Counted from the stretch's first letter, positions 18,471-39,329 are shown. The stretch: 64,000 nucleotides of DNA from an uncultured bacterium (GCA_949293175.1 CASFCI010000005.1:2170-66169); one strand, 5' to 3'. Numbers and translations are program-made. The notes: generated from the sequence alone by a model not told the origin.

Positions 18471-18499
18471 AAAGAAAAGGCCCGGCGTGAACCGGGCCC
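18471..18499 (-). terminator. Intrinsic terminator ending the nuclease-ABC operon
   Basis: Minus strand reads GGCCCGG-ttcacg-CCGGGCC-TTTTCTTT. Confidence 0.8.
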
Positions 18500-18514
18500 C
18501 AAGGAGGACGCTTG

Positions 18515-21409
18515 TTAGGCGGCTAGGTTGATGACGATTGAAGAGATGTAGAAGGCGCCCGACACTGTTCCGTGGTTTATGCGGAAGTAGGTTGCTCCGG
18601 CTGCATCGGTGTTGCTGATGGTGACGACGGGGTTGCTCGCATCGAAGGCCACGTTGTCTATCGATAGGTCTTCTGCAATCTCGGTGGTTGCGAAGCCAAC
18701 AGATAGGCGAGCTTTGGCGTTGTTGGTCTTGTTGGTGTTGAAATGCAGCTCTATCGATTCGATGGCCGAGGGCATGGCGGTTGTGTTCCAAATGGCAGAG
18801 TTTTTGCCGTCTTTGTTACGCCACTGAATGCCATCTCCCAAATCAGCTAGTTCGTTGTAGGAGAAGTTGACTCCGGAAGCACTGGCGGTGCCGGCGGCAT
18901 AGCCGCTAAGTCCAAGAGTTTCAGCGGTGATCTCGATGCTGGTGACAGCGGCCGAAGCATCGCGAAGGGTGACGGTGACCTTGTTGACAACGGTGACGTT
19001 GAACTTGTAGGTTCCATCGGTCTCAGCGGTCAGGGTCGAGGATCCCATAGCGGTGGTCAAGGCCACTTTTTCGACGACGTAGCCTTCATCCGGGGTGACG
19101 GTGACGGTGGCTTCGGTGCCGTAAGTGGAGGCGGTGTCCGGAGTAACGGAGACGGTTCCATGCTCAACCTCGTCGACGGTGATCGAGTAGGTAGCGGTGG
19201 AGGCCTTGTGATCAGTCAAGACGGAGTAGAACTTTATTGAGCTGCTCATGCTCCAAGCGACCGGGGAGACAACCACGGTGACTTCCTCGCCGTTGTTGAC
19301 ATCGGCAAGAGTTTCAACGGCAGTCTGCGGGTTTTCGTAATCCACAGCGCCATCGACCATGGTGTAGACGTTTTCGGTGGTCATGCCGTATAGGGCAATG
19401 GACTTACCGGTGGCCGGATCGGTGACATAGGCGTTCCCATACTTGTCGGTGTGATCAAGGCCTTCGAGGATGCCGGTGACCTTATAGAGGTGAGCGGTAT
19501 CGACGTCCTTCTTGTCGGCTAGGTCGGCGATTGTCCTATCGGTAGCGGTGGCTAGGTCGACAGTGGTCGGCTCTTCCGGCTCGGGGGTTTCGAGCTTTCC
19601 CCAGGTGCAGAGGTTGGCCTTTAGGTTCTCGCTGACGTGCTTGATGTCGGAGAGGGAGAAGGTGTCGTAGCTCTTCTGCCCGCCGATGAAGTAGGTGGTT
19701 TCGTTCAAGACAGTGGTAAACGCGCTGTTGGTGGCGTCGTAGGTCCACTCATAGGCTTCGGTTCCGATGCCAATGTTGTTGTGGGTCTTCCCATCGCTGC
19801 CGGTGGAGGTGGAAGCGGTTAGATACTTGCCGGTTCCGACTTCAAGGGTCCACTTGCCGTTGGAGGCGTGCGGGGTGACGTCGGCCTGCTTGTCGAAGGT
19901 GGCCTTATCGGTGACCTTGGCGGCGCCTAGATAGAAGCCATCCATCTCACCGGTGAAGATCCAGTAGCCCTCGTTGGCTTTGCTGTCGTTGTAGGCGCCG
20001 AACTTCATGGCGACACCGTCTTCCGGAGCGGTGAAGATCGGCCCTTCGGTCATGACGACTTCTTCGGTCGGGATGTAGTAGCCGTTGTAGAGGTGGGAGA
20101 CGTAGGTGCTGTCGAGCTCGCTGATGTTGTAGGCGCCGATGGTGGCGTAGGTTCCCTGCAAGCCGATGATGGCCTGGGTCGGAGCCCCATCATAGGTGAC
20201 ATCGGCGACGAAGGTAGCAAGCTCTTCATCGAATGTGAAGCTGAACGGTTCGTCTTGATAGACGGCGTTGTAGTGGGTTCCGGAGACGCTGACCGCGATG
20301 TATTTGCCGGCGGAGGTCTGCAGGGTCCACTTGCCATCGGTCTCGGTGGCGGTCACATCGATGGCGATCTCGGGATCAGTGGTGGTGACCATGTAGTATC
20401 CGCTCATGTCGCCGGTGATGCAGCTGGCGAGGTTGGGATCGCCGGTCTTGTCGGCGCCGAACTTATAGGTCTTGCCCGATTCCGGAGCAGTTACCTTCTC
20501 ATAGCCTTCGACGAAGGTGTAGGGGAGCATGTACCAGTTGGCGGCGATGTTTTCGTCGGTGGCTTCGTAGGCATCGGCGGTGCCGTAGTTGCCATTGCCA
20601 CCGATGAAGAGATCCTTGCCATCGACGACGGCGTGGAAGATGGTCTTCTCGGCATCGTAGGTCCAAACGAACGGATCGGCCTGATAGAGGAAGTTGTCGT
20701 GGCCATCGTTCATGGCGGCGGCGACGTACTTTCCGGTGCTGGACAAGCCTTCGGTGACGACCTTCATGGTCCATCCTTCGCCCGAGGCGGCTAGTTCAAT
20801 CTTGGCGGCCTTGTCGTACTGATCGACGCCAACGCACTCACCATAGAATCCATCCATCTCGCCGGTGATGAAGGAAATCTCACCGGTCGTGCGATTCAGG
20901 AAGCCGAAGGTATAGGTTCCGGCCTTGATGTCGGTGACTACTTGCGGGCCAACGGCGGTGACGGGGCGGTTGGTGACGGTAACGTCGACGGTGTCGGTCA
21001 AGGTGGTCCCGTTGTCGTTTTTCAAAGTGACGGTGATGGTAGCGGTGCCCACGCCAACTCCGGTGACGCCAAGTCCGGTGCAGACCGCGACGGCGGGATT
21101 GGAAGAGGTGGCGGTCAGCTTGCCAGAGTTGATGAGGTTGATCTGGTTGGTAGCGGGATCGATGCTTAGATTAAGGGTCCTGCTTTCCTCGGCCTCAACG
21201 TACCAAGCGGCCTGCAGCTCGTCCTTGTTGCTGATGGACATGCTGGTGAAGTTCTGCTCTTGGGATGGCTTCGAGGACGACTCGCCAGAGGGCGAAGAAG
21301 TCCCTGGGTCGGTGCTGGATGGGGTGCTGCTATCGCTGGAATTAGTCGGCGTGCAGGCCGCTAGACCGAGTGCTAGCAACGCAGTTAAGGCAACAACGCT
21401 TTTTTTCAT
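18515..21409 (-). CDS. Large surface lipoprotein: Ig-like domain, three ~150 aa beta-rich repeats, OB-fold, C-terminal beta domains
   Basis: Lipobox LAAC and Ser/Thr linker; SSNPAVA...G.GTATITV Ig motif; three TG(E/D)M(D/S)G(F/Y)Y repeats; YKVTGI...YGNAYVTD OB-like segment. Confidence 0.85.
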   Translation of the reverse strand: MKKSVVALTALLALGLAACTPTNSSDSSTPSSTDPGTSSPSGESSSKPSQEQNFTSMSISNKDELQAAWYVEAEESRTLNLSIDPATNQINLINSGKLTATSSNPAVAVCTGLGVTGVGVGTATITVTLKNDNGTTLTDTVDVTVTNRPVTAVGPQVVTDIKAGTYTFGFLNRTTGEISFITGEMDGFYGECVGVDQYDKAAKIELAASGEGWTMKVVTEGLSSTGKYVAAAMNDGHDNFLYQADPFVWTYDAEKTIFHAVVDGKDLFIGGNGNYGTADAYEATDENIAANWYMLPYTFVEGYEKVTAPESGKTYKFGADKTGDPNLASCITGDMSGYYMVTTTDPEIAIDVTATETDGKWTLQTSAGKYIAVSVSGTHYNAVYQDEPFSFTFDEELATFVADVTYDGAPTQAIIGLQGTYATIGAYNISELDSTYVSHLYNGYYIPTEEVVMTEGPIFTAPEDGVAMKFGAYNDSKANEGYWIFTGEMDGFYLGAAKVTDKATFDKQADVTPHASNGKWTLEVGTGKYLTASTSTGSDGKTHNNIGIGTEAYEWTYDATNSAFTTVLNETTYFIGGQKSYDTFSLSDIKHVSENLKANLCTWGKLETPEPEEPTTVDLATATDRTIADLADKKDVDTAHLYKVTGILEGLDHTDKYGNAYVTDPATGKSIALYGMTTENVYTMVDGAVDYENPQTAVETLADVNNGEEVTVVVSPVAWSMSSSIKFYSVLTDHKASTATYSITVDEVEHGTVSVTPDTASTYGTEATVTVTPDEGYVVEKVALTTAMGSSTLTAETDGTYKFNVTVVNKVTVTLRDASAAVTSIEITAETLGLSGYAAGTASASGVNFSYNELADLGDGIQWRNKDGKNSAIWNTTAMPSAIESIELHFNTNKTNNAKARLSVGFATTEIAEDLSIDNVAFDASNPVVTISNTDAAGATYFRINHGTVSGAFYISSIVINLAA
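19610..20950 (-). repeat. Three tandem ~150 aa protein repeats inside the lipoprotein
   Basis: Recurring FG...TG(E/D)M.G(F/Y)Y...G.WT...GKY...N.....(F/Y).(W/F)T(Y/F)D...IG..G.Y.T; boundaries approximate. Confidence 0.8.
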
Positions 21410-21442
21410 GTTTCCTCCTTGTTTACCTTTTTTCTTCTCCCG

Positions 21443-21916
21443 TCACTGGACGAAAGTGTGGTTGTTGATATCCCTCAGAACTCCGTTGTAGGTCACCTTT
21501 TTTGATATGCCTACGATCACGAGGATGACCCCGGAGATCAGAAGAATCGAAGAGATTACGGTCAAGACTATGAACACGTAGAACTCGGCGCAGGTGGTGT
21601 CGAGCTCAAAGCCTTGAGAGGGCCGGTTGGCCAATAGGTAGAAGATCAAGCCCAAGACGAGCAGTATTGCCCCGACGGAGACGAATCCCATACCCATTGA
21701 GAAATGGTTGTTCCCGCGCTGTATCTCGGCGTGGGCGGCAGTCGACAGGGACTTCAGGTCCTTCTCATCGTGTCCAGCGTGGATCGCCTCTCCGCAGCGA
21801 GGGCAGACATACTCGATGCTGCTCTCGGCGGTGGCTCCCTCGATGTTCTCGATGGAAGGCTTCTTGGCCTCTATCGCGTGCTCATTGATACGTTTTCCGC
21901 AGTGGTAGCAATACAT
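21443..21916 (-). CDS. Zinc-ribbon membrane protein (2 TM segments)
   Basis: CYHC...CPRC followed by two hydrophobic helices; AGGAG SD. Confidence 0.8.
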   Translation of the reverse strand: MYCYHCGKRINEHAIEAKKPSIENIEGATAESSIEYVCPRCGEAIHAGHDEKDLKSLSTAAHAEIQRGNNHFSMGMGFVSVGAILLVLGLIFYLLANRPSQGFELDTTCAEFYVFIVLTVISSILLISGVILVIVGISKKVTYNGVLRDINNHTFVQ

Positions 21917-21917
21917 T

Positions 21918-23810
21918 TTATTCTCCTGTCGGGTTTAGGCAGACCAACTCATCGGCGTTGCTCGGGTTGACCTGATACGACATCCTGCCGGTGGTGGACT
22001 TATGGATGGTGAAGATGCCCTTGAGCATGAACTGCTTGCCTTTGTAGTCATCTATGTTGCTCCAGATCCAGTTCGGCTGATCCGGATCGCCGCCATAGGT
22101 GAAGCTTAGGTAGATGTCGAAGTCCAGCCCTTCGAGGTAAAGGGTTCCCTCGGCGCCGTCGATGTAGCCGCCAGAGCAGGTGACCGGGTCCTCTAGGGAG
22201 ATGTAGGTCCCGAAGTAATCGAGGTTCTTGTTGGCGGCCATGGTGGATAGTTCCGCCGCGGTGAAATCGAGCGGGACCATCTGGTGGACGTCGGTGTTCT
22301 CCTCCGCGGTCAATATGACGGACGACTCTTTGTCGGAGTAGCCGCCGACGCGCGGGAAGTAGGTGTCGGAGATCTGGAAGCCGAAGGAGGAGTCCTTGGC
22401 GATTCCCTTGACCTCGATGTAGGTGTTGAGGACGGTGAATTTGTCCGGGATGGGGCTCATGCCGACGAAGATGTTGATGGAGGCGTATTGCTTCTCTCCG
22501 GTGTCCTCGTCCTCGTAGACGTCCTGGATGTAGAGGATGTGGTTGGAGAAGCCGATGACGGTGCCCTGGACGGCGACCTTGCGGTTGTCGTAGTAGTTCT
22601 TTAGCGGCAGCGACAGCCCATCGGAAGCGCCGAGGTAATCCCAGGCGTAGTCGTGCTCATCATCCATGGAGACGAACGGATCGTGGTTCTCGTCGACGCC
22701 ATAGCCGAGGTAGAGGTTGGTTTCCTTGTTGAAGAAGGCGACGCCGCCGGTCTCAGACTTGATGTTCCAGACCGCGGCCTCGTCGCGCTTTTCGGTGGTC
22801 TCGAGGACGCCATTGGCGCATTCGCCGGTCAGATAGACGGTTTTTGCGGCGATTAGGTCGTCGTAGGCAAGCAGATAATCGGTCCCGACCGAGAGATCGG
22901 AGTATGAGGTGCCTTCAATGGCGACGCCGTTGGTGTCGCGGATGGTTACCTTGAATTCGCTTGAGGTGACCTCATCTGAGAACTTGCCGATGACCCCGTT
23001 GGTGGAGCTCACAAGCGACATGCTCTTGGTGCCGTCGTAGGCGTAATCGCCATCTAGCTGGCTGGCTAGCGAGATCTTCTGGAGGTTCTGCATATCGAGC
23101 AGGCTCGACTGGCGGAATTCCTCATCGTAGGGGTAATCCGGATCCTTCTCGTTGGAGAATACGTGCAGCTTGTAGGCGCTGGCCTGCTGCTGAGCCTTGA
23201 TGAAGGTATCGGAGAGCTCGGGGATGCTAGAGGTGTTCTTGGCCCATGAATATCCTTCCTGGACGATCATGAGGTTAAGGAGCTGCATCTCTTCCTTCGG
23301 AGCGTTCTTCTTCGTGGTGTTTACCCAGATGCAGGCGAGGTAGCGCTCGCCGGTGGAATCGTGGGTCGGCGCGCGGTATTCGCTATAATTGTCGCCGGTG
23401 ACGACTACGGTGCCGTTAGCGATCGCTTCGGTGAGTATTTCCTTGGTATATTTGCTTGCAGACTGTCCCCAAGGCTCGATGGCCCCGGTGGATTCGGGCG
23501 TGTCGATCCCGTAGAAGCGGCACTTGATCCTTTCTGAGGAGGTGGTGGTCACCATCGGATCGAAGTGGGCGGTATCGCCGTCGATCGCGTAGTAGCTCTT
23601 CATCTGGCCAACGCCGTCTTTAAAGAAATCCTTGCCCTCGTAATCGAGCTGGAGGTGGACGGTCGCGGCATAGTCTACCCAAGCCGGGAGCTCAGATCCT
23701 GAGCCCTGAGTAGTGCTCGCACCGGGAACAGAATCGGTGCTGTTTGTCGGTCCGCAGGCGGCTAGCGCGAATAGGCTGGTCGCGAGTAGAAGCAATGTGT
23801 TCTTTTTCAT
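21918..23810 (-). CDS. Thermonuclease (SNase) lipoprotein with C-terminal OB-like domains
   Basis: Lipobox LAAC; IDGDT, RFYGIDTPES, DSTGERYLA and LNLMIVQEGY match the SNase catalytic motifs. Confidence 0.9.
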   Translation of the reverse strand: MKKNTLLLLATSLFALAACGPTNSTDSVPGASTTQGSGSELPAWVDYAATVHLQLDYEGKDFFKDGVGQMKSYYAIDGDTAHFDPMVTTTSSERIKCRFYGIDTPESTGAIEPWGQSASKYTKEILTEAIANGTVVVTGDNYSEYRAPTHDSTGERYLACIWVNTTKKNAPKEEMQLLNLMIVQEGYSWAKNTSSIPELSDTFIKAQQQASAYKLHVFSNEKDPDYPYDEEFRQSSLLDMQNLQKISLASQLDGDYAYDGTKSMSLVSSTNGVIGKFSDEVTSSEFKVTIRDTNGVAIEGTSYSDLSVGTDYLLAYDDLIAAKTVYLTGECANGVLETTEKRDEAAVWNIKSETGGVAFFNKETNLYLGYGVDENHDPFVSMDDEHDYAWDYLGASDGLSLPLKNYYDNRKVAVQGTVIGFSNHILYIQDVYEDEDTGEKQYASINIFVGMSPIPDKFTVLNTYIEVKGIAKDSSFGFQISDTYFPRVGGYSDKESSVILTAEENTDVHQMVPLDFTAAELSTMAANKNLDYFGTYISLEDPVTCSGGYIDGAEGTLYLEGLDFDIYLSFTYGGDPDQPNWIWSNIDDYKGKQFMLKGIFTIHKSTTGRMSYQVNPSNADELVCLNPTGE

Positions 23811-23832
23811 CTGACTTTTTCGCTCCTATTCA

Positions 23833-25341
23833 TCAATGGAAGTAGGTCTTGGCGTTGTTGATCGCGTTGGTGAACGCCTCGGTGACCGAGATGCTCTGGG
23901 TGCAGACGGTATTGAGGATGGTGCCGACCTGGTCGCGGAGTTGGGCGGACCCGACGAACACCGGGGTGACGATGTAGTTGCCGTTGATGTCGTTCTGCAG
24001 TATGTCGGAGGTCGCAGCGATGGGATCGGTCAGATTCTGCATGAACTGCTGGTAGACGGTGGTCTCATAGGCGGAGTAGCGGACTGGGACATAGCCCTCT
24101 GAGCCGAGCACGCAGATCTTGGCGTTGACGTCGGGGTTGGTTAGGTACTTCATGAATTCCCATGAGTAGTAGGTCCTCCAGTAGCCCTCGGTCTCGTCGG
24201 TGGTGTTGTTTAGCAGCGCCAGGGTCGGCCCCTGGTTGACGTAGATTGGCTTGTTGTTTTCGTAGGGGATTTTGCAGACGCCGACGGTGAAGGCATCGGA
24301 GGTAGGGATGTTGTAGCCGGTGCCGCCGCTGGAGCCGATCGAGAAGATGGTCTTCTGCTCGGTGAAGGCGTTGGATCCATAGGTGCCCTCGAGGGCCTTG
24401 GTGGTGAAGACGCCGTCGGCGTGGGCGTCGGCTAGGTTCTGGATTATGGCCTCGGCCTTGGTGCGGTTCTCGCCGGTCTCGAACGGGATCTCGCCGACCC
24501 CGTTATCCCCGACTGCGGAGTAGGGGATGTCGTTCTGCATGAGCTTGGTTATGAACAGGTTAGAGTCGGAATCGTAGTAAATCGGGTATTCCAGCGAGGT
24601 CAGGATTTGCTGTTTGTTGTCTTTGATGTACTCGCCAAAGGCCATGAAATCGTCCCAATTGATGTTGGAGATCCATTCATCCATGGCATCGGTGGAGTCG
24701 ACGTTGACTCCTTCCGGCTGATACATCTTGCAGGCGGTGTAAAAGGCCTGCTTGTTGTAGAACATGACCTCGGATGACTTCATGAACGGCAGGGAGTACG
24801 AGCCTTCCTGCTGATACATCGAGCTCTCCTCGATGAAGGCCTCGACGAAGTCGTCTTTGCCATAGGAGAGGGACCCGGATTTGTCGCCGAGCCATTCCTG
24901 AGTGCCGAAGCCGACCTCGGGCGAGGACATCCACTGGTCGAGGTTCACTAGCACCTCCCTCCCTGATGGGGAGTTGTAGATGTAGTTGGCCACGTTGTCG
25001 GGATAGGCAACGGTGATATTGGGGTAAGACCCGGAGGCAAAACCCATGAGGATGTTGTTCTGGATGTCATCGTAGGAGCCCTTGTAGGTCGGCTCGATGG
25101 TGACGTTCACGCCGTCATGCTCCAAGACGAGGTCATGGAAGCTTTCGATCACCTGGGACAGGTAATCCTGGGTGTTCTTGCCGAAGGTGTGCCAGAAGGA
25201 AATGGTTACCGTGCTGGGCTTTTCGCCGTCGGTTGTGGATGAGGAGGATTGCCCTTGCGTCTTTTCCCCGCAAGAGACTAGGACGCCTAGGAGAGCAATG
25301 CTGCTCACTAGGCCCGTTATAGATTTGGATAGTTTCATCAT
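23833..25341 (-). CDS. ABC transporter substrate-binding lipoprotein (CUT1/UgpB-like), copy 2
   Basis: Lipobox LVSC; FWHTF, YPDNVA, SLPFMKSSEVMFYN, NQGPTL. Confidence 0.9.
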   Translation of the reverse strand: MMKLSKSITGLVSSIALLGVLVSCGEKTQGQSSSSTTDGEKPSTVTISFWHTFGKNTQDYLSQVIESFHDLVLEHDGVNVTIEPTYKGSYDDIQNNILMGFASGSYPNITVAYPDNVANYIYNSPSGREVLVNLDQWMSSPEVGFGTQEWLGDKSGSLSYGKDDFVEAFIEESSMYQQEGSYSLPFMKSSEVMFYNKQAFYTACKMYQPEGVNVDSTDAMDEWISNINWDDFMAFGEYIKDNKQQILTSLEYPIYYDSDSNLFITKLMQNDIPYSAVGDNGVGEIPFETGENRTKAEAIIQNLADAHADGVFTTKALEGTYGSNAFTEQKTIFSIGSSGGTGYNIPTSDAFTVGVCKIPYENNKPIYVNQGPTLALLNNTTDETEGYWRTYYSWEFMKYLTNPDVNAKICVLGSEGYVPVRYSAYETTVYQQFMQNLTDPIAATSDILQNDINGNYIVTPVFVGSAQLRDQVGTILNTVCTQSISVTEAFTNAINNAKTYFH

Positions 25342-25390
25342 CGCTCTCCTAAGTTTGTCATATCAAATTGAGGAAGTAGTAATGCTGAGA

Positions 25391-26938
25391 TTACTTAATC
25401 TGAGCCAAGGCTTCGTTGTAGGCGGTGTTGAAGATCGAATTGAGCTTCTCGTCGGTGATGTAGGCGGCTTCCTGCATGACCTGGGTCACGATCGAGCCGG
25501 CCTGGTTGCGGCACTCGGAGGAGCCGATGAAGACTGGGGAGGTGAACATCTCATCGGAAGCGGTCTGGTAGTGCTTCATGCCGCGGGCAATGAGGAGTTC
25601 GAGCCCGTCTTTTCCGGTCTCTGTGGCGGCGTTGGTGTAAGCGGCCGATTCATAGCAGGAATAGCGCAGCGGCATATAGCCGGTGGAGTTGAGGGCCCAC
25701 CTGGTGGAGTTCTCTTCGTTGACCATGAAGCGGTAGAAGAGCCAGCTGGCCATGATGCGGTCGGTGTCGACTGCGGAGTTGCCGCCGCCGATCGGGTGGT
25801 TGAGGATGACCATCGAGGGTCCCTGGCTAATGGCGGCCTTGGTCGGGTTCTCGATTCCGGCCTGAGGAACGCCAGCGACGCTTGGGACGAACTTAGCGGC
25901 ATCGGAGTACTGATAGGTGATGCCGCCGGTCGAGCCGATGGAGAACAGGAGTTTGCGCTCGGTGAAGAGGGTGTTGACGTAGTCGCCGGTCTTGCCCTTG
26001 GTAACGAATAGCTTATCGACGGCGGCCTTGTTGAGCATCTTCATGAGGCTCTTCATGCCGTCGTTAACGAAATCGATCTGGCCTTTGCCGGTGATCGGGT
26101 CGATGGAGGTGTAATCATACCCGTATTGTTGGGCTAAGGTGATGAAGAGGTTGTCGTCGGAATCGTAGCCGATGATGGCGGGATTCTCGTCGGTGGCGTC
26201 GTAGATCTTGGTTTCGGCCGGCTGGGCGTCGTTGTATTTCTTCAGAGCCGGGGCGAGGTGGTTAAACATCTCTTCCCAGGTGATGTTGTTGATGTAGTCC
26301 TCGGTGATGGTTCCGTTGTCGCCGATGGTCTTGTCATAGGCAGAGAGGTCAAGGCCGATGATGATCGGGTTATAGAACATAGCCTCGGTCGACTTGGAGA
26401 ACGGTACCGAATAGGTGCCTTCGGCCGAGTACTGCTGCCCTTCTTCGATGAAGGCGGGGACGATGTCCTCTAGATCCTCGGCAGACCAGCCATAGACGGG
26501 GTCATTGATGTAATCGTCGAGCTTGGCGGCCTTGCCATAATAGAGGTATTCGGCGACGTGGTCGGGGTAGCAGTAGGCGATGTCGGGGTAGGAGTCGGAG
26601 GAGAAGCCGGTGATGATCTGATTCTTTAGATCATCGTAGCTTCCGCTGATCTTGTTGTTGGTGATCTTGATCCTCGGCTCTAGTTCGTTGAACTTGGCGA
26701 TGTAGTCGTCGAGGATGGTTTGCGCGGTTTCGCCGGCAGTGGTCCAAAGAGTGATGTTAACATCCTTGTCGGTGAAATAGGGCTGATACTCGTCGGTGGC
26801 CGGGGTCGAAGTATTGGTGTCGGTCCCGGTGCTGGTCGGCACGGATGGCGTGGTGGTGGATGCTCCTCCAGAGCAGGCAGCGAGCAGCATGGCGGCCGAC
26901 ATTATCGGCAGTATGGTGCCCATGCGACTTCTTTTCAT
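25391..26938 (-). CDS. ABC transporter substrate-binding lipoprotein (CUT1/UgpB-like), copy 1
   Basis: Lipobox LAAC; YPDHVA, SVPFSKSTEAMFYN, SQGPSM; paralogous to the adjacent gene. Confidence 0.9.
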   Translation of the reverse strand: MKRSRMGTILPIMSAAMLLAACSGGASTTTPSVPTSTGTDTNTSTPATDEYQPYFTDKDVNITLWTTAGETAQTILDDYIAKFNELEPRIKITNNKISGSYDDLKNQIITGFSSDSYPDIAYCYPDHVAEYLYYGKAAKLDDYINDPVYGWSAEDLEDIVPAFIEEGQQYSAEGTYSVPFSKSTEAMFYNPIIIGLDLSAYDKTIGDNGTITEDYINNITWEEMFNHLAPALKKYNDAQPAETKIYDATDENPAIIGYDSDDNLFITLAQQYGYDYTSIDPITGKGQIDFVNDGMKSLMKMLNKAAVDKLFVTKGKTGDYVNTLFTERKLLFSIGSTGGITYQYSDAAKFVPSVAGVPQAGIENPTKAAISQGPSMVILNHPIGGGNSAVDTDRIMASWLFYRFMVNEENSTRWALNSTGYMPLRYSCYESAAYTNAATETGKDGLELLIARGMKHYQTASDEMFTSPVFIGSSECRNQAGSIVTQVMQEAAYITDEKLNSIFNTAYNEALAQIK

Positions 26939-27002
26939 TAGTTTTCCTCCTTTAATGAAGCGAGTCGGTTTTATCTAAACGCCGAAGCGTATAGACCATC
27001 GT

Positions 27003-27986
27003 TTAGCCTTTTATGCCGGCGCGGCCAACGCCCCGCATGATGTATTTGCGGAAGAAGACGAACAGCAAGAACAATGGGACGGTTACCAAGACGGTAGCAG
27101 CCATCTGATAACCATATTCTACCTGACCTCCGGCATCGTTGTTTACAAACGATGACCCGCGCAAGCCGTTGGAGATGAGCTTGTAGTCCTCGTTGAGGGT
27201 GACCAGCTGTGGCCAGACGTAGGAGTTCCAGGTTCCCATGAACTTGAGGATGGTGATCGAGATGAGAGTGGGGGCGGCGAGCGGGACCATGACCTTCCAA
27301 AGGAAGGACCAGTCGGACTTTCCGTCGACCTTGGCGGCTAGGTATAGTTCGTTGGGGATTTGCTTGAAATTCTGCCTTAACAGGTAGATGTAGAAGACCG
27401 ATACCCAGAACGGCACGATCATGGCGGCGTAGGCATCCATCAGGGTCTGACCCTCGCCGATCCAGCCGAAGCTCGCAACGGTGATGAAGTTCGAGATGAC
27501 CATCATCTCGCCCGGGATCATCATGGTCATGAGGAAGAGCATGAACAGCGGTTCGCGCCCTTTGAACTTAAGCCTCGCGAAGGCAAAAGCGGCAAAAATT
27601 GTGGTTAGCAAGGTGCCGATCGTCGAGAAGATGGCGACGACGATGGTGTTGAGCATGTAGGTCCCGAAGTCGAATACCTGGAACACGTAAACGTAGTTGC
27701 TCCACATGACGATGGTGGGGAAGAACGTCTGGGTGGTGGCGATGATTTCCGACCTCTGCTTGAGCGAGGTGATGATCATCCAGTAGAACGGGAAGATCAT
27801 GACCAAGGCCAAAAACAGGATGAAGGCGTAGGTGATGACCATCATCACGATGTGGCCTATCCGCTGGCTGCGCTTTATGGCGTCGACGGTCTTTCCAGCT
27901 TCCTGGATGGAGAGCACGACGGCCGGCTTCTCTAGCAAGGCAGGCTTGCTGGCTTTGGCGGTATTGTTCTGAATTGCTTTTTCCAT
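27003..27986 (-). CDS. CUT1 ABC permease (MalG/UgpE-like)
   Basis: PFYWMIITSLK, IPNELYLAAKVDG EAA loop, WNSYVWP; the ATG at 27986 follows a GGAGG SD. Confidence 0.92.
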   Translation of the reverse strand: MEKAIQNNTAKASKPALLEKPAVVLSIQEAGKTVDAIKRSQRIGHIVMMVITYAFILFLALVMIFPFYWMIITSLKQRSEIIATTQTFFPTIVMWSNYVYVFQVFDFGTYMLNTIVVAIFSTIGTLLTTIFAAFAFARLKFKGREPLFMLFLMTMMIPGEMMVISNFITVASFGWIGEGQTLMDAYAAMIVPFWVSVFYIYLLRQNFKQIPNELYLAAKVDGKSDWSFLWKVMVPLAAPTLISITILKFMGTWNSYVWPQLVTLNEDYKLISNGLRGSSFVNNDAGGQVEYGYQMAATVLVTVPLFLLFVFFRKYIMRGVGRAGIKG

Positions 27987-27996
27987 GGCCTTCCTC

Positions 27997-29031
27997 CTAG
28001 TAATGGACCCTCGTCTTCCCAACTGCGAACTGCAGGAAGGTGAACGCCAAGATTATGACGAACAGGAACACGGCAGCGGCCGCGGCGTATTGGGTGTTGA
28101 TCTGAAGGTTATCGTAGATGTAGTAGACGATCGTGTACATGTTCGGCTGGCCATAGGTGCCAGAGGTGCCAGGGCCGTTGAACAAAGCGACGATAGAGGT
28201 GTACTCCTTGAACGCCCCGATGAAGGAAGTGACGAGGATGTAGAGGATCTGCGGGGAAAGCAGAGGGACGGTGATGCGCCAGAGGGTCTTGGCCTTCGAG
28301 GCGGCGTCGATCTGCGCAGCTTGGTAGTATTGCTTGTCGATTCCCTGCAATCCTGACAGGAAAACGAGGATTTTGAATGGGATTGATGACCAGACTATGT
28401 AGATGCATAGCGGCACCATTGCGACCCAGCGGTCGGCGCCGTAGATCCAGGTGGTGTCTGAGCCGAAGATGTAGTTGATGACGCCTTGGTTGTCGAAGAT
28501 GACGGCGAAGACCATGCCGACCGCGATGCCGTTGGTGACGTAAGGCAGGAAGAAGACGGTCTGCAGGAACTTCTGGAACCATTTGATGGAGTTGAGGGCG
28601 ACCGAGATTATGAGCGCCAATAGCGTCGACACCGGAACCGTCATGAAGACTAGGATGAAGGTGTTCGGGATGGCGTATTGGACGAAGTTGGTCTGGGTGG
28701 CCCCGGTCGAGGTTGTGGTTAACCCGAGGATGACCCCGAAGTTGTTGATGGTGAAGCCATCGTATTCGCCGGTCGCGTACTTGTAGTTGTCGGTGAAGGC
28801 GATGAACATGGTGTTCACCAAGGGGTATAGCAGGAAGACGACGAGGAGAATCAAAACCGGAGCTAGGTAGAGCCAAGCCTTCCAGTTGTTGTTGCTGGCC
28901 ACGTCGTTGATGCCCGTGACTTGGTATTCCTTCTTCCTCTTGCGGGAAGAGACGAGGCGGATGACGGTGTCGTTCTTCTCCTCGTGGTAACCAAGCGAGG
29001 GGGCTATTTTCACGCTTGTCTGTTCGCTCAT
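27997..29031 (-). CDS. CUT1 ABC permease (MalF/UgpA-like)
   Basis: WLYLAP, FFLPYVT, LSGLQGIDKQYYQAAQID, ITVPLLSP. Confidence 0.92.
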   Translation of the reverse strand: MSEQTSVKIAPSLGYHEEKNDTVIRLVSSRKRKKEYQVTGINDVASNNNWKAWLYLAPVLILLVVFLLYPLVNTMFIAFTDNYKYATGEYDGFTINNFGVILGLTTTSTGATQTNFVQYAIPNTFILVFMTVPVSTLLALIISVALNSIKWFQKFLQTVFFLPYVTNGIAVGMVFAVIFDNQGVINYIFGSDTTWIYGADRWVAMVPLCIYIVWSSIPFKILVFLSGLQGIDKQYYQAAQIDAASKAKTLWRITVPLLSPQILYILVTSFIGAFKEYTSIVALFNGPGTSGTYGQPNMYTIVYYIYDNLQINTQYAAAAAVFLFVIILAFTFLQFAVGKTRVHY

Positions 29032-29040
29032 AACTCCCCC

Positions 29041-30966
29041 TTAGTCTAGATAGATCCTCTTTTCGGTTTCCCCGTCGAAGACGAACATCTTGTGGGGCTT
29101 GACGGCCACGCAGAGGGTTTGGGCGCCCGGGTGGTCATCGGCGGAGATGATGATCTTGAAGGTCTCCTTGGTGCAGTGGGGGTTCTTGGCGACGATGGAG
29201 ATATCGCGGCCGAGGACCTGGATCATCTCGACGTCGCAGTGCAGACCCTGGCCTTCCTTGGGCTTATCCATGGAGAAGCCTTCTGGGCGGATGGCGATGT
29301 AGACGTCCTTCTCCTCTTTGAGGGCTTTCGACTTGGAAGCGAAGACGACGTCGTCGCCGATCATGACCTTGCCGCCGCCGATATGGCCCTTGAAGACGTT
29401 GATCGGCGGGGTTCCAAGGAACATGGCGACGAATAGGTTCGATGGGTTGTTGTAGACGTTCTGCGGAGCGTCGATCTGCTGCATTTCGCCTAGCTTCATG
29501 ACGACTATCTGGTCGGAGATCGACATCGCCTCTTCCTGGTCGTGGGTGACGAAGACGGTGGTGATGCCGGTTTCCTTCTGGATGCGGCGGATCTCCTCGC
29601 GGGTCTGCAAGCGGAGGCGGGCGTCGAGGTTGGAAAGCGGCTCGTCTAGGAGCAAGACCTTTGGCTTCTTGACGAGGGCGCGGGCGATGGCGACGCGCTG
29701 CTGCTGGCCGCCGGAGAGCTGGTTGGGCTTGCGCTGCAGGTACTCATCGACTTGGACGAGCTTCGCAACCTCGTAGACGATATCGCGCCTTTCCTCTTTG
29801 GTGAGGTGGCGGTGGGCGATGGCCTGGGTGGTCTCCATTGAGACATCGGATAGGTCGAATTCCTTGGACAGGAACTGCTTGGCCTCATCGGCAGCTTTCA
29901 AGCCGATCTTGTGCAGGCGGAAGTAGACCTTAGTCTTGCCTTCTTCGTAATAAAGTTTGAAGTCGGAAATCGAGAGCTTTTGCTTGGCGAATTCCTTCTT
30001 GAACTTGCCTGATAGGGCCTTGTTGCGGACGTTGGTGATGGAATAGGTGCGGCCAAGGAAGTGCCCAGAGGCATCTAGCTCAGCCAAAATGCCATCTAGG
30101 TGGCCGCGGCGGAGCTTGGCGAAGCGGGCCATGAGCTCGTATTCGCCGTTTTGCAGACGGGAGATGATGACGCCTTCGCTGACGGCGTATTTCTTGATGA
30201 TGTCTTTTATGGTCTTGATGGTCTCGTCGATGGTCGAGGTCTGGAACTTCTTGCCTAGGTTGCCTTTGAAGATGACGTCGAGGCTCTCATCTTCCGAGCT
30301 GACGTTGACGGTGGCCCTGAAGCTGGCATCGTAAAGGGCGTCGGAAGTCATCTCCTTGGTCTCGGAGACGAGCTTGGCGTTCTCGCTGACCAGCGGGAAG
30401 TTGCTTAGGTATAGATCGTGGTTGGCCTCGGATATATCGAGCAAATCGATTCCGAGGACCAGCTTGTTGCCTTCGTGGCTTTCGATCTTGGCGGCGATGT
30501 TTCTGCCCTTCAGGCCGATGCGCTTGGCCAAAGCCAAAGCCGATTTGACGATGGCCTCGGGGATATCGCGCTCCTTCAAGGCGATCTCATATACCAAATG
30601 GAAGTGGAAGAAGGTGACCAGCGGAACCTCGACCTTTAGGTTGGTCAAAGGGAACTCGATGTTCTTGTAGATGCTCATGTGCGGGTAAAGGGCGTAGTTC
30701 TGGAAGACAAGCCCGATGCCGCGCTTCTCAGGAGCTAGGTTGGTAACTTCCTGATCGCCGAACCAAACCTCGCCGGAAGTGGGGTTCTGCAGTCCGGATA
30801 TCATGTAAAGAGTGGTGGATTTTCCGCATCCGGAAGGGCCGAGCAATCCGACCAGCTTGCCGTCTGGAACGGTGAAGTTGAGGTCTTTGACGGCCACGGT
30901 GTCGCGGATGTTCTTCTTCGCATCCCCCGGGAAGATCTTGGTTAGGTCCTTGATTCTGATTTCCAT
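29041..30966 (-). CDS. CUT1 ABC ATPase (MalK/UgpC-like) with ~270 aa insertion
   Basis: GPSGCGKST and FQNYALYPH, then a long insert, then [27 protein letters not shown]. Confidence 0.93.
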
Positions 30967-30981
30967 TTTTGTACCTTTCCT

Positions 30982-33093
30982 TTATTTGGTGCCGTCGTCG
31001 TCATTGACGTCGGAATCCAGTTTAAGCTTGATGGCTTTGCGCCTTTCCATCTCGTTCTTGATGGCCACCGCGAAGTAACGCACGTAGTAGCCGACGGAAA
31101 GTATCGCCGCGATGCCGAACGCGATGACGAAGGCGTCGGTCGGGTTGTATACGACCAAGGTATTGTCCAGGAAGCCCCAGCGCATTATGCAGAAGGTTAC
31201 GAACAGGACGATGAAGCCGACGAGGAAGAAGGCCAATATTGCGTTCTTCGCGAATAGCGACGGATTGAGGCGGCGGAACTCATCGTTCTTGAACTTTATC
31301 TTCTTGTAGAAGTAGGTGGCGACGATCGCGGCGATCATGATTACCGCGTAGATGATGGTCGTGAGGATGAGGGTCGAATCTAGGTTGTCGGTCGGGAGCT
31401 TGGAGTCGGCGTCGACCTGCTCGATGTTTAGATAGCCGAAGCGGGTCGAAACGGAAGAATGTCCGATGGCCTGATGGGTTTCGGTGTTCATTATGTCGAG
31501 CGTTATACCGAGGTTGTAGATCCCAAACCCCTTCATCTCGGAGGTCTTGAATCCCTCGCCGATCTCGGTGTTCTTAATCAGGAATCCGATGGTCTTTTCC
31601 CCGGTCATGACGAAAGAGGCGAGCGGGGTGAACACGCTGATCGAGGTTTCGACTATTTCGCCGTCTTTGAGGTAGCTGATGGCATATTCGGCGTCGTTTA
31701 GGCTGGACATGCGGAAGCGGATGTAGCAGCGGCCGGAGGCTATCGCCGATTCCTGTGATAGGTAGATCGACGGGTTGAGCCGCTGGTATACGCTGGTGTC
31801 AAGTTGGATTTTGAGCACGATTCCGGTGTACCCGGAGAAGGTGGCGAGATGGTCGAACTCTATAGAGGCGAAGTCCGACAATTCTAGTTTATTGGTATAG
31901 GCGATGCGGGCCTGCGCGTAGTAGCTGCCGGCCTCGAGGTTGGGCGCGAATTTGCCGTTGGAGTCCCTTATGGCCTCGTAGATGTTGGAGAAAACAATGC
32001 TTTCGTCATCCACCGATTGGCCTTCCTCGAGCGGTATGTCGATGTTGCGGGTCATGGTGACCTGGCCAACTGTATCGCCGGCGGCGTTGTAGAAGATGCC
32101 GTTGGTGGTAATGTTAATCGGATATAGGCGGTTAAGGGTTTCCCTGGTGCCATCGGCGTTAACAACATCGTAGCTGACGCGGAGGAGTTCCGGCTTGATG
32201 GGTGCCTTGTCTCCGGCGTCATAGCCTAGGATGAAGGAAGCCCCGGTTCCGAAGTCCTTGTTCTGGCTCGAAGCGGTTTCGGTGGTGTAGGTGATCTCGG
32301 TCCCGGTGATGATGTTCTCCGGTAGGGCGTCGGTCCAGCCTTCCTCAAAGGTTTCGGGAACCTCATCGGCCTCGAGGTAGATCTTGCAGGTGGCGCTTAG
32401 CCCGACAAGGGCATCGGCGGCCGCCGAGACAATTTCCTCGGGTATCCAAATTTCGGTGATGGAAGCGGCGCTTTCGGGATTGATGGCGTTGGCGTAGATA
32501 TTGGTTATATCCACGATGTAGTAGCCGTTTTTGGTGAGTTGCGCAGGAATCTCAATTACGGTATCGCCGCTCGACGGGCCGCCCGAGGCGATTTCGATCT
32601 GGTAGACAGAACCGGTGTATTCGGGTAGGGTGACCTCTCCGGTTTCCGGGTCGGTCGGGGCTTGGATGTCGCCGGCGAACGACGGATCGTCGACCGTGAC
32701 GTAGGCTTGGCGGTAGCGGTTGGCGATGGTGGAGATTCGGGATGAGAACGTAACCGAATAAGATTGCATGTTCGGAGTCGAGGTGGAGGAAGTAAGCGAG
32801 GCTATTAGGTTGTTCTCAACGTCGTGCGCCTCTTGCGGTATGCCGGTTCCGGGTTCGGCCGCGCTGACCTCCGACACCTGGTCACCAACGATTGGTCCGC
32901 TGGTTGTTGAGGTGCTTTCGGATGAGGACGTTGATTGCTCTTGCGAGCTTGATGCGGCTTCCTCGGCAAGGCCCTCAATGGCGCTTGTCTTGCTGGCGGC
33001 TGCAGCAACCCCCAAAAGGGCAAAGGCAGAAAAAGATGCTAAAAGCCACCTCCTGATCTTGGAGGGCTTTCCGGAACTGAATCGGTTGTCCAT
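30982..33093 (-). CDS. Large extracellular membrane-anchored protein (signal peptide, short BspA/LRR-like segment, 3 C-terminal TM segments)
   Basis: 703 aa ORF; IEIPAQ..ITNIYANAI..ITEIWIPEEI LRR_5-like pattern; ends 15 nt upstream of the ATPase start. Confidence 0.75.
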   Translation of the reverse strand: MDNRFSSGKPSKIRRWLLASFSAFALLGVAAAASKTSAIEGLAEEAASSSQEQSTSSSESTSTTSGPIVGDQVSEVSAAEPGTGIPQEAHDVENNLIASLTSSTSTPNMQSYSVTFSSRISTIANRYRQAYVTVDDPSFAGDIQAPTDPETGEVTLPEYTGSVYQIEIASGGPSSGDTVIEIPAQLTKNGYYIVDITNIYANAINPESAASITEIWIPEEIVSAAADALVGLSATCKIYLEADEVPETFEEGWTDALPENIITGTEITYTTETASSQNKDFGTGASFILGYDAGDKAPIKPELLRVSYDVVNADGTRETLNRLYPINITTNGIFYNAAGDTVGQVTMTRNIDIPLEEGQSVDDESIVFSNIYEAIRDSNGKFAPNLEAGSYYAQARIAYTNKLELSDFASIEFDHLATFSGYTGIVLKIQLDTSVYQRLNPSIYLSQESAIASGRCYIRFRMSSLNDAEYAISYLKDGEIVETSISVFTPLASFVMTGEKTIGFLIKNTEIGEGFKTSEMKGFGIYNLGITLDIMNTETHQAIGHSSVSTRFGYLNIEQVDADSKLPTDNLDSTLILTTIIYAVIMIAAIVATYFYKKIKFKNDEFRRLNPSLFAKNAILAFFLVGFIVLFVTFCIMRWGFLDNTLVVYNPTDAFVIAFGIAAILSVGYYVRYFAVAIKNEMERRKAIKLKLDSDVNDDDGTK

Positions 33094-33101
33094 ACGCGTT
33101 A

Positions 33102-33130
33102 ATTATATACAGGGATTTACCGAATTGCAC
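33102..33130 (-). promoter_or_regulatory. Leaderless-type promoter heading the nuclease-ABC operon
   Basis: Minus strand reads GTGCAA-17-TATAAT-8 nt-ATG, with no SD. Confidence 0.6.
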
Positions 33131-33188
33131 ACCAGTGATTTTTGCTTCCGACGGGGTAGCGCTTTCATAAATTTTCAATCGACGTTTT

Positions 33189-34199
33189 TCATTCGCGGCG
33201 GACCGATTCGAAGCTTATTGGGCGACGATGCGTTTCCGCTCCCGAAACCTGGGCTTCCGAAAGCGAATAGAAGATTTGCATATTCGTGGTATCAACTTCC
33301 TGCAAATCAAGCAAATAGTCGGCAAAACCTTGCCGCTTTTTGCTAAATCCCATCAAAGTAACGGATATTATTGCGGGGATTGCGAAGCTGAAGACCGAGA
33401 AAATTAGTATCGCGAAATAGAATATCGCGAACCTTGCCAAAGACCTTTTCCAGGTAGGGTTGAGCATTCTTCCATCGACAGTGCCGATCCTATATAGGGC
33501 TTTGCCGAAGGTCTTTCTCCCGCGGCGGAAAATCCAAGTCGGGACATAGTAGGTTAAGATGCCCGAGAGGCAATAGGAAATCGGGACTTCGACGAATAAA
33601 AGGATATTAGAAATGTACTTTGTCAGATCCAAATATGGGGTGATTCTTGTTGTTAGGTAGCCTTGGCAATGCTCGTTTATGAACGGAGTGTAAACATTCT
33701 CGAAATACTGTTTCTTCGAGGCAATGCATTCGGGGTTTTCAACAAGTTTGCCGCCTTCCATTATGAAATATGGTTCTTCAAGAAGGTATTTATCGAGGAA
33801 GAAGTCATGGTAATCGTTTGTGATTTCGTTAGATACCTCCTCTCCTTCGACCCGGTAGGCGTAATCGATGAAGTCCTCAATCGCCTGCTTGGCCTTGCTG
33901 ACCTTGTCGGCGGCGGTGAACTCGCTTGAGGCGCTTAGGTAGCCTGCGACGTCGAGTATCTGGCCTTCGTCATCGACGTAAAGGGCGCTGTCGAGCTTCA
34001 TTTGGGTCAGCGCGGCTTCCTTCTCAATGTAGTCTGGAGTTGTGCAATAGATCGCCCTGACAGCCAAAAAGCAGCATATCCCCAATAAAGCGAAGATGAG
34101 CAAATCGACTAGGTTGGCGAAAAGCCTCCTGATGAACTTGGCCCTGGTATAGACAATCTCGATCGGGCCATCGTTTTTCTTATTCTCTTCGTCTATCAT
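33189..34199 (-). CDS. RDD-family membrane protein
   Basis: RRLFANLVD, GRKTFGK, RQGFADYL. Confidence 0.8.
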   Translation of the reverse strand: MIDEENKKNDGPIEIVYTRAKFIRRLFANLVDLLIFALLGICCFLAVRAIYCTTPDYIEKEAALTQMKLDSALYVDDEGQILDVAGYLSASSEFTAADKVSKAKQAIEDFIDYAYRVEGEEVSNEITNDYHDFFLDKYLLEEPYFIMEGGKLVENPECIASKKQYFENVYTPFINEHCQGYLTTRITPYLDLTKYISNILLFVEVPISYCLSGILTYYVPTWIFRRGRKTFGKALYRIGTVDGRMLNPTWKRSLARFAIFYFAILIFSVFSFAIPAIISVTLMGFSKKRQGFADYLLDLQEVDTTNMQIFYSLSEAQVSGAETHRRPISFESVRRE

Positions 34200-35335: not shown

Positions 35336-35365
35336 TTTAACCGCAAAAGCCTTTCGCAAGTTTAA

Positions 35366-35863
35366 TTATTTTGCCCTTCGCAGAGCCTCGCATACGAAGT
35401 CGGGCCCGACGCGAACCACTTCGTCGAATGCTTTTTCGGTTTCTTCGTCTAGCGGCTCAAACTGCGATTCGAGCCTCTTCATGGCCTCCAAGGGAAGCCT
35501 TCTATCGCCGGTGCGCTGATCGTTGAGCAATTCGCAAACCGAAGCGGGTATATCGAACATGACCAGGACGTGGTGATCGTATTCTGGGGTGGAGTCAACG
35601 TAGTATCTGCGATAGTGGTTGTTGAGGTTGGTGGAATCGGCTATGACGATCGCCCCTTCCTGTTTCCCGAATCGCTTGAGCCTATCCAAGAAGGTGGACC
35701 AAACGCGAGCTTCGTCGGAGAAGTTCGCGGTCGTGCCGAAGAACTCCTTCCTAATCTCGTCGCTCGAGACTATCTTCGCCGAGGGATGCAGCCGTTTGTA
35801 TTGCCTTGACCAAGTCGATTTCCCGCTTCCTGGCAAGCCCGATAAAAGCAGCAGAGTCCGCAT
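35366..35863 (-). CDS. AAA_33/PNK-like P-loop kinase
   Basis: GLPGSGKST, SSDEIR, DSTNL. Confidence 0.85.
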   Translation of the reverse strand: MRTLLLLSGLPGSGKSTWSRQYKRLHPSAKIVSSDEIRKEFFGTTANFSDEARVWSTFLDRLKRFGKQEGAIVIADSTNLNNHYRRYYVDSTPEYDHHVLVMFDIPASVCELLNDQRTGDRRLPLEAMKRLESQFEPLDEETEKAFDEVVRVGPDFVCEALRRAK

Positions 35864-37581: not shown

Positions 37582-37612
37582 TTTTATCGGCCTTAAAGAT
37601 AAGAATTAAGCC

Positions 37613-37654
37613 ACGCTGTTAGTCCTCGGCACCCAGCGTTAAAAAATCAGGAGG
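37613..37654 (+). ncRNA. preQ1-I-like riboswitch (variant)
   Basis: P1 stem ACGCTG/CAGCGT, 15-nt loop containing TCCT, A-rich tail TAAAAAATC, then the AGGAGG SD that can pair with the loop; directly upstream of queT. Confidence 0.7.
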
Positions 37655-37662
37655 CACCGAAA

Positions 37663-38175: not shown

Positions 38176-38189
38176 GCCCTAAAAAGTAG

Positions 38190-39329
<1,140 letters not shown>

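Follow-up and report, generated by a model that had tools for sequence, protein, structure and literature searches.

Operons that join a staphylococcal nuclease (SNase) lipoprotein to an ATP-binding cassette (ABC) importer are known from mycoplasmas. According to the relevant passages of the papers cited here, the SNase gene of Mycoplasma agalactiae is co-transcribed with the ABC genes and P80 (MAG_5030-5070; PMC3585158), a set in M. bovis (MBOVPG45_0307-0311) has been termed a putative nucleotide transporter operon (PMC4045577), the lipoprotein MslA of M. gallisepticum binds DNA, both single- and double-stranded (PMC4045577), and a review of 2025 restates the model in which such systems import nucleic-acid precursors (PMC12115388). 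Here we analyse a window of 64,000 nucleotides from an uncultured bacterium (GCA_949293175.1, CASFCI010000005.1:2170-66169; positions are counted from its first letter), in which nine open reading frames (ORFs) follow one another in tandem on the minus strand (33093 to 18515). A first-pass annotation of the window had taken them for an expanded version of the mycoplasma system that captures, digests, and imports extracellular DNA and RNA. Gene content and synteny agree with such an expanded relative in an organism using translation table 11. A putative cell-surface machine for scavenging nucleic acids is, with moderate confidence, our best reading of the operon from sequences and structural models, because the nuclease is linked to the transporter, the binding proteins are of a phosphate-ester type, and no markers of de novo nucleotide synthesis were found in the host; a strict link to the loss of purine synthesis did not hold up.

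Numbered in the direction of transcription, the genes g1 to g9 encode a membrane protein, an ABC ATPase, two permeases, two substrate-binding lipoproteins, the SNase lipoprotein, a small membrane protein with a zinc ribbon, and a large lipoprotein. The mycoplasma operons (M. agalactiae, M. bovis, MslA/MGA_0676 of M. gallisepticum, mhp379, and MG185-189), as far as the passages describe them, likewise combine an SNase, a large binding lipoprotein, and a CUT1-type ABC importer. The mycoplasma model lipo_P68 matches 12 of 14 binding proteins of the window's family (g6 best, 6.7e-16; g5 1.1e-09), though at scores far below its cut-off (58 and 37 bits versus 200), and Lipoprotein_X matches weakly (0.0079, below cut-off). 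The gene order differs, being lipoprotein, SNase, ATPase, permeases in mycoplasmas (PMC3585158, in the passage on the operon) and ATPase, permeases, two binding proteins, SNase in the window. Compared with the mycoplasma operons, the window has two binding proteins instead of one and a nuclease with two domains resembling the oligonucleotide/oligosaccharide-binding (OB) fold; it adds g1, g8, g9, a pair of RDD-type genes, and an insert of 274 residues in the ATPase, all in a table-11 genome of 54-57% GC.

A second precedent is provided by the DNA-degradation loci of Izemoplasmatales, which the passages on them describe as combining nucleases, an ABC importer, and a large surface protein that binds nucleic acids; in a cultured strain, DNA induces the cluster and promotes growth (PMC8289736, PMC8397711). 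As in the window, the nucleases there are clustered with the importer and relatives of the binding subunit adjoin them; OB/Ig-type nucleic-acid-binding lipoproteins, comparable to g9, lie alongside (PMC8289736). By the same accounts these loci contain phosphohydrolases and a phosphate transporter along with as many as five nucleases, whereas the window's cluster contains one nuclease and neither of the others: among its ORFs and the flanking ones scanned, no phosphohydrolase or Pst gene was found. The passages make no mention of an ATPase insert or of genes like g1 and g8 (PMC8289736, PMC8397711). In view of both precedents the basic nuclease-ABC system is already known.

The association of nuclease and importer was followed through three sets of loci. 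The first comprises 20 loci around SNase matches in relatives, and is therefore selected by the nuclease; in 19 of them the nuclease adjoins genes for the ATPase, the two permeases, and either one or two binding proteins, one contig being cut short. For the second, named genome contigs were searched with a 14-sequence profile of the binding proteins, the nuclease playing no part in the selection; the best 80 of 627 confirmed stretches were retained and gave 72 loci, which are thus the closer relatives (some genomes repeat from the first set). At least 1500 nt follow the last binding-protein gene in 65 of these 72 loci, and an SNase gene lies there in 61; of the other four, two hold orphan binding-protein paralogues with no ABC genes and two are ABC loci that lack a nuclease. 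The third set holds 20 loci from among the best-scoring ones of 10 other families (GC 0.25-0.38). Nineteen are ABC-linked, with the nuclease directly after the binding protein in 11, elsewhere on the same strand in five, and absent from three; in two it precedes the ATPase, as in mycoplasmas. The nuclease is therefore conserved with the ABC genes (61/65 in the closer relatives, 16/19 in other families), over at least 11 families of the class, and by these synteny counts the arrangement is far beyond chance. SNase lipoproteins were matched in 33 of 41 related genomes, and the binding-protein profile matched 254 of 400 genomes sampled across the class (E<=1e-10). At the same threshold it found nothing in three families with at least 20 genomes and shown sizes of about 0.8-1.3 Mb (f14, 0/49; f18, 0/23; f28, 0/21). 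The nearest named relatives of the locus are metagenome-assembled genomes of uncultured Bacilli, such as Ca. Enterosoma and Ca. Alectryobacillus, and metagenome runs from chicken gut and birds contain DNA near-identical or related to the window.

The nuclease g7 (21918-23810, minus strand) is a lipoprotein of 630 residues with its lipobox cysteine at position 19. Its SNase domain scores 34.6 bits against a Pfam cut-off of 21. The domain was recognised in all 69 aligned SNase lipoproteins, with no other family matched; D77, G78, D79, T80, R98, T104, P105, E106, and R156 are invariant in that alignment and D103 nearly so. We take the catalytic residues to be the counterparts of D21, R35, D40, T41, E43, and R87 of the S. 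aureus enzyme. In the AlphaFold model (predicted local distance difference test, pLDDT, 85.4) residues 54-219 superpose on staphylococcal nuclease (1sta) with a VIA Z of 17.1 and a root-mean-square deviation of 1.9 over 133 residues, and the Foldseek list for the model is filled by staphylococcal nuclease variants. Lipobox, Pfam score, invariant residues, and predicted fold all bear out the earlier description of an SNase lipoprotein with intact catalytic motifs. Beyond it lie a middle domain of lower confidence (about 256-400), restricted to the closest relatives, and two OB-like domains. The first of these (about 405-505) resembles anticodon domains of tRNA synthetases, MCM, RPA, Ten1, and a 'nucleic acid-binding lipoprotein' at Z 8-10, and the second (511-626) the OB domains of CST and RecJ at Z of about 8; as scores of 8-10 are only slightly above the background of the tool, the argument lies in the consistency of the OB matches. 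Pfam searches with the C-terminus of g7 and with fragments of g9 (E<=1) gave no relevant family, a chance-level Mg_chelatase_C match (E 0.075) standing alone. OB-fold domains are also joined to an SNase domain in YhcR of Bacillus subtilis, a surface enzyme that yields 3'-nucleotides; YhcR, however, is anchored in the wall, carries a fused 5'-nucleotidase, and is not known to be encoded together with an ABC importer.

The importer itself is of the CUT1 type. Its UgpC/MalK-type ATPase g2 (29041-30966, minus; 641 residues) ends in a MalK-like regulatory domain, shows ABC_tran (1.8e-35) split into two stretches, and has UgpC as best NCBIfam match (346 bits versus a cut-off of 432). The CUT1 permeases g3 (27997-29031, minus; UgpA/MalF-like, BPD_transp_1 1.1e-19) and g4 (27003-28022, minus; UgpE/MalG-like, BPD_transp_1 6.3e-17) match UgpA and UgpE (3.8e-29) best. 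The binding lipoproteins g5 (25391-26938, minus; 515 residues, lipobox Cys22) and g6 (23833-25341, minus; 502 residues, lipobox Cys24) are paralogues of 31% identity. For the binding component UgpB is the best NCBIfam match; g6 reaches 1e-12 and 47.4 bits against a cut-off of 411, and g5 itself has no match to that model. Over the 14 binding proteins of the profile, UgpB was matched by 12, as was lipo_P68, and carbohydrate models by 7, 5, 3, and 1; Pfam assigns the family to the general SBP_bac_8 (g6, 1.5e-18) and SBP_bac_1. The system is single-copy in its own genome. Orphan paralogues of g5 (57% identity) were noted in loci L032 and L052, with no ABC genes within 10 kb and the full operon elsewhere in the same genomes.

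Compared with solved structures, the 14-sequence profile placed the 7c0f/7c0x series first (2e-39), followed by UgpB of three organisms (6x84, 9lff, 4aq4; about 1e-37), UgpB/UspB of the M. tuberculosis type (1e-22), and true sugar binders at 1e-18 or weaker. The 7c0f series is taken here for the U3G (uridylyl-3'-5'-phosphoguanosine) binder of Thermus thermophilus, an unconfirmed identification, the PDB table naming it a sugar-binding protein. Four residues that vary among the 7c0 entries, presumably engineered binding-site mutants, align with the nearly invariant Y124, D126, Y320, and S336 of g5. The U3G binder and a binder of glycerophosphocholine (GPC) are close relatives of UgpB; in all three, two tyrosines and two serines hold the phosphate, and a pair of tryptophans that clamps the glycerol is peculiar to UgpB (PMC12718374, in the passages on these proteins). 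UgpB of E. coli, taken from the K-12 record, was aligned with the family (15 sequences, g5 and g6 included), and the residue numbering of that paper was mapped onto it by inference: Y65, S144, S270, and Y346 are nearly invariant, R397 fully so, and their counterparts in g5 (Y101, S183, S336, Y421, and R477) are all conserved. The two tryptophans of the UgpB W-x-x-W are replaced in the family by Asp/Ser/Ala/Glu and by Phe/Leu/Tyr/Ile. Thus g5 and g6 have the phosphate Tyr/Ser/Ser/Tyr and the arginine in common with the UgpB clade, to which the GPC binder of M. tuberculosis and the U3G binder belong, and differ from it in being lipoproteins, about 100 residues longer, devoid of the tryptophan clamp, and far below the UgpB cut-off. 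Since the phosphate ligands of UgpB are kept, its clamp is gone, and the nearest relatives bind phosphate esters, the ligand of g5 and g6 is most likely a phosphate ester other than glycerol-3-phosphate (G3P), which fits the products of an SNase; the two proteins presumably differ in specificity. Profile, NCBIfam matches, and ligand residues together place them with phosphate-ester binders instead of sugar binders. This residue-level case for a phosphate-ester, non-G3P ligand, though drawn from aligned sequences, is new for the window's binding-protein family.

Staphylococcal-type nucleases release 3'-phosphorylated mono-, di-, and short oligonucleotides. In the mechanism that we propose, the OB-like domains of the lipoproteins g9 and g7 would retain extracellular DNA or RNA at the membrane and the SNase domain of g7 would cut it; g5 and g6, with a phosphate site of the UgpB/dinucleotide-binder type and no glycerol clamp, would capture the resulting phosphate esters and pass them to the CUT1 importer g3/g4/g2. 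Inside the cell, DHH enzymes of NrnA size, nucleoside phosphorylases, and phosphoribosyl pyrophosphate (PRPP) synthetase could feed the fragments into salvage. The host genome (1.41 Mb in 16 contigs, 97% complete) encodes four DHH proteins, two of them in NrnA-sized frames (338 and 323 residues), three PNP_UDP_1 phosphorylases, and one xanthine/uracil permease. Six-frame searches of it found neither purH, purD, pyrF (orotidine monophosphate decarboxylase), pyrD (dihydroorotate dehydrogenase), nor OTCace_N (the carbamoyltransferase domain); of 14 control genomes, 12 to 14 match each of these de novo markers. Searches for a Bmp-type nucleoside binding protein and for a dNK kinase were likewise blank. 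Blanks of this kind are weak for short domains, because a six-frame search with PF00565 overlooked g7, although hmmscan of the g7 protein exceeds the cut-off. Of 49 genomes sampled in the window's order, 45 have the binding-protein family and two have purH. A literature search on nucleases and nucleotide biosynthesis in RF39 found no paper on the host's lineage.

Several observations weigh against the scavenging reading or narrow it. The binding-protein family also occurs in families whose sampled members all have purH (f15, 4/4; f21, 8/10; f33, 10/11), and seven of the 16 nuclease-linked loci from other families sit in purH-positive genomes, so that the suggested correlation of the operon with purine loss is weak. 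The operon is not confined to auxotrophs, which is new here. Because the binding-protein family and the nuclease-linked loci also occur in purH-positive genomes, it resembles a means of general nucleic-acid foraging, one that looks to become important, perhaps essential, in auxotrophs. With a nucleobase permease present, bases could moreover be salvaged without the operon. The NCBIfam matches of the ABC parts and binding proteins all lie under the curated cut-offs, and the assignment of the 7c0f series to the dinucleotide binder is tentative; the one paper that the literature search found on that binder (PMC12718374) gives no PDB code. The phosphate site of g5 and g6 would also suit glycerophosphodiesters, and a M. 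pneumoniae MPN133 mutant grows poorly on glycerol (PMC4766277, in a passage citing Grosshennig 2013). The last two points lead to the most substantial rival, a Ugp-like importer of glycerophosphodiesters or small organophosphates whose nuclease serves mainly phosphate acquisition or another role, with no transport of nucleotides. UgpC, UgpA, UgpE, and UgpB are indeed the top NCBIfam matches for all four parts, the phosphate ligands recur in UgpB and in the GPC binder of M. tuberculosis, and the operon's presence in purine prototrophs would be no surprise for such an importer. It would, however, have to do without the tryptophan pair of UgpB; no glycerophosphodiesterase or glycerol gene was found in the cluster or the scanned flanks, the tight and wide linkage is instead to a nuclease and OB-fold proteins, and the related mycoplasma lipoprotein MslA binds DNA, as the passage cited above reports. 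On balance we consider a Ugp-like importer unlikely.

An ordinary CUT1 importer of sugars or oligosaccharides, beside a nuclease that clears extracellular DNA (biofilm matrix, host traps) or serves host interaction, seems very improbable to us. The general Pfam families of the binders would allow it, as would the carbohydrate-binder models touched by 7, 5, and 3 of the 14 members and the annotation of the mycoplasma homologues as sugar transporters (PMC3585158, in the passage on them); yet solved sugar binders match about 20 orders of magnitude worse than phosphate-ester binders, and the nuclease linkage is kept across at least 11 families. The first-pass annotation had also remarked on the lack of a glycosidase or sugar regulator, and none was found, nor any sugar kinase, among the ORFs scanned from 9.8 to 40.4 kb. 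An apparatus for uptake or surface display of long nucleic acid, for instance in gene transfer or signalling, with the ABC importer secondary, would account for the several OB-like domains and for g1, g8, and the RDD pair, an unusually large set of membrane proteins that have parts in the cytoplasm. An active non-specific nuclease in the unit would, however, destroy long DNA, the type I importer has binding proteins sized for small ligands, and no competence-type genes were seen in the cluster; this explanation, too, seems very improbable to us. The scavenging reading carries a testable prediction: ligands of g5 and g6 should be phosphate esters such as 3'-nucleotides or dinucleotides, with two binding proteins to examine. 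It is of wider relevance to how reduced-genome gut bacteria feed on extracellular nucleic acids, the cargo of the mycoplasma-type nuclease-linked ABC importers being so far only proposed.

The window's ATPase is distinguished by its insert (29806-30627, minus; 274 residues, about 114-387), which lies inside the helical subdomain and separates the helix that follows the Q-loop from the one after it; E. coli UgpC has four residues at this point. Two forms of the operon can be distinguished. Form A, that of the window, has g1, the insert of about 274 residues, two binding proteins, g8, a g9-type lipoprotein, and a nuclease whose C-terminal OB pair is recognisable by BLAST; form B has neither g1 nor the insert, and about 25 residues at its position. 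The 72 loci include 37 with and 27 without the insert. Upstream of the ATPase, g1 is present in all 36 insert loci with room for it (the contig of the 37th begins at the ATPase) and in none of the 27 insert-free ones; the corresponding counts are 32/37 and 0/27 for an upstream gene of 387 codons, 34/37 and 11/27 for the RDD gene, and 27/27 (loci with room) and 11/17 for g8, the latter in a diverged form. Ten loci of the first set have both insert and g1 and nine have neither, and the 19 loci from other families in the third set lack both. A search with the insert alone recovered it from the host itself and from 10 of 40 genomes sampled in the window's family, with one marginal match in 359 genomes outside that family (399 scored in the class); form A is present in one genome of the same order but another family. 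Among the genomes examined, species of one genus carry either form, never both. By these alignments and neighbourhoods, insert, g1, g8, and the RDD pair form one conserved, lineage-restricted module around the nuclease operon, which is new here. In many loci of form B (L021, L022, L026, L076, L079, and L082), the nuclease is followed by a lipoprotein that has only the C-terminal domain of g9 in common; another SNase protein, shorter than the first, comes next, along with a zinc-ribbon membrane protein of diverged sequence. A divergent intermediate was also seen (L166, G407:C10, 10885-14077), with a 548-residue ATPase bearing a shorter insert, an RDD pair, g8, and a g1-like protein of 507 residues that is alignable in the membrane module only and whose tail is without the D-D-G-T-K ending.

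The product of g1 (30982-33093, minus) is a membrane protein of 703 residues. Its model (pLDDT 81.8) predicts an N-terminal transmembrane helix, a disordered linker, a beta-rich ectodomain, and three C-terminal transmembrane helices. It had been called LRR-like (leucine-rich repeat): the five best VIA-align matches to residues 119-266 of the model are BspA-type (LRR_5-type) proteins (Z 8.2-9.7), in keeping with that name for this part of the protein, but Pfam LRR_5 finds nothing in the window's g1 and matches two of 42 relatives. Foldseek gave only tandem beta-sandwich matches with a TM-score below 0.2. Invariant among 42 sequences are D604, E605, F606, R638, N650, D653, G668, D700, G701, and T702; conservation is strongest in a predicted cytoplasmic loop (D604, E605, F606) and the tail (D700, G701, T702), and not in the ectodomain. 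A profile of g1 recovered 465 proteins at E<=1e-30 from 1.84 billion representatives of clusters at 50% identity, at least 150 of the 465 being near full length, with weaker matches stemming from the repeat region; a word-based homologue search returned seven proteins, none of them named, and g1 matched no Pfam or NCBIfam family. The small protein g8 (21443-21916, minus; 157 residues) keeps C3, C6, C38, and C41 in 58 of 58 sequences ahead of two hydrophobic segments (78-96 and 116-134), which upholds its earlier description as a zinc-ribbon membrane protein; Pfam and NCBIfam give weak zinc-ribbon-type matches only.

The lipoprotein g9 (18515-21409, minus; 964 residues, lipobox Cys19) has an Ig-like domain at its N-terminus, followed by a central region, an OB-like domain (640-712), a domain resembling the InlB B-repeat, and a conserved domain at the C-terminus. 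The motif G-[ED]-M-x-G-[FY]-Y can be read three times in the central region, and self-BLAST of g9 gave no significant repeat. The earlier label of OB-fold lipoprotein is supported only indirectly: 14 of 43 syntenic counterparts match the tRNA_anti-codon OB family and 23 of 43 Big_2, and a profile of residues 640-712 aligned with a Pfam-OB-seeded profile at 96.9% (hhalign; 11 of 46 segments are common to both profiles). Neither g9 nor its fragment matches Pfam, and BLASTP of the fragment against one Pfam-annotated OB segment was not significant. As for the claim that the three accessory genes are undescribed, it stands for g1 and g8, for which neither a family in Pfam or NCBIfam nor a name in the sources was found, and less so for g9 in view of the Izemoplasmatales precedent. 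It also holds for the ATPase insert, which has no Pfam or NCBIfam family and is named in no source.

A more speculative proposal from the sequences gives g1, g8, and the RDD pair the role of accessory membrane subunits in the expanded variant. The cytoplasmic loop and tail of g1 might dock on the 274-residue insert and so couple or regulate transport; in a fuller version the operon would represent a new class of ABC importer with accessory subunits, the insert would be a docking platform for the loop and tail (perhaps also for the zinc ribbon of g8 and for the RDD pair), and whatever the LRR/beta-sandwich ectodomain of g1 senses or holds, presumably nucleic acid, would gate or drive the motor, possibly for oligonucleotides longer than those within reach of a plain CUT1 system. 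We hold this fuller version to be unlikely. The co-occurrence of insert and g1 may go back to one ancestral event in one clade, and so says little about contact; a complex prediction for g2 with residues 565-703 of g1 scored 0.00 in a run without controls and speaks neither for nor against binding. The expanded variant is nevertheless rare among type I importers in having an ATPase with a large inserted module, and since the insert always accompanies a dedicated membrane protein family, it could reveal how accessory subunits couple capture to transport.

An ORF scan confirmed all nine same-strand genes, separated by spacers of 15, 9, -26, 64, 49, 22, 1, and 33 nt from g1 to g9. The negative value arises from the listed TTG start of g4, which overlaps g3; relatives of g4 align from about residue 13-35 onward, and translation more likely begins at an in-frame ATG located 36 nt downstream. 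The lipobox cysteines of g5, g6, g7, and g9 were read directly and are invariant or nearly so in the family alignments. The single terminator and single promoter noted earlier fared differently: a terminator-like hairpin (18477-18500, minus; 10 pairs, seven of them GC) followed by a T-run lies 15 nt past the g9 stop, and a scan of the 95-nt gap before g1 found no sigma-70-like site. A TATAAT ending 8 nt before the g1 ATG is the sole promoter-like element in 33094-33188; no Shine-Dalgarno sequence is visible before g1, which would imply a leaderless or read-through transcript. Three more co-directional genes upstream (33189-35863) are syntenic in relatives, so the transcription unit may be longer. 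Two of them probably belong to the module, to judge from their neighbourhoods: an RDD-family membrane protein (33189-34199, minus; RDD 9.6e-12), which lies outside the range first annotated, and the 387-residue protein of like architecture (34196-35359, minus), whose gene overlaps the RDD gene by 4 nt. In some genomes this pair is located after g9 instead. Among 20 metagenome runs of nine studies with window-like DNA, no RNA run is listed. In four runs presumed to be RNA, contigs of a relative, mostly 90-95% alike, bridge gene junctions; contigs cannot show transcripts, starts, or levels.

The third upstream gene (35366-35863, minus), directly before the RDD pair, encodes a stand-alone P-loop kinase of 165 residues with a paralogue at 12713-13198 (minus). 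Among solved structures it comes closest to polynucleotide 5'-kinase domains (C. thermocellum Pnkp, T4 PNK) and to PSTK. A link to the operon is tempting, because SNase products carry 5'-OH ends; as part of the operon the kinase was rejected, since it adjoins it in a few relatives' loci only. PRPP synthetase is encoded 3.5 kb upstream on the opposite strand, together with QueT, tRNA-guanine transglycosylase, and QueA (36622-40391, plus); further away, 2487-4868 (minus) encodes an anaerobic ribonucleotide reductase to which a glutaredoxin-like tail is fused. Towards the end of the window, the GC content drops to 0.41-0.47 between 56000 and 62000, compared with 0.60 in the preceding 14 kb; this low-GC stretch contains two long ORFs with ABC_tran, one of them also with FtsX.

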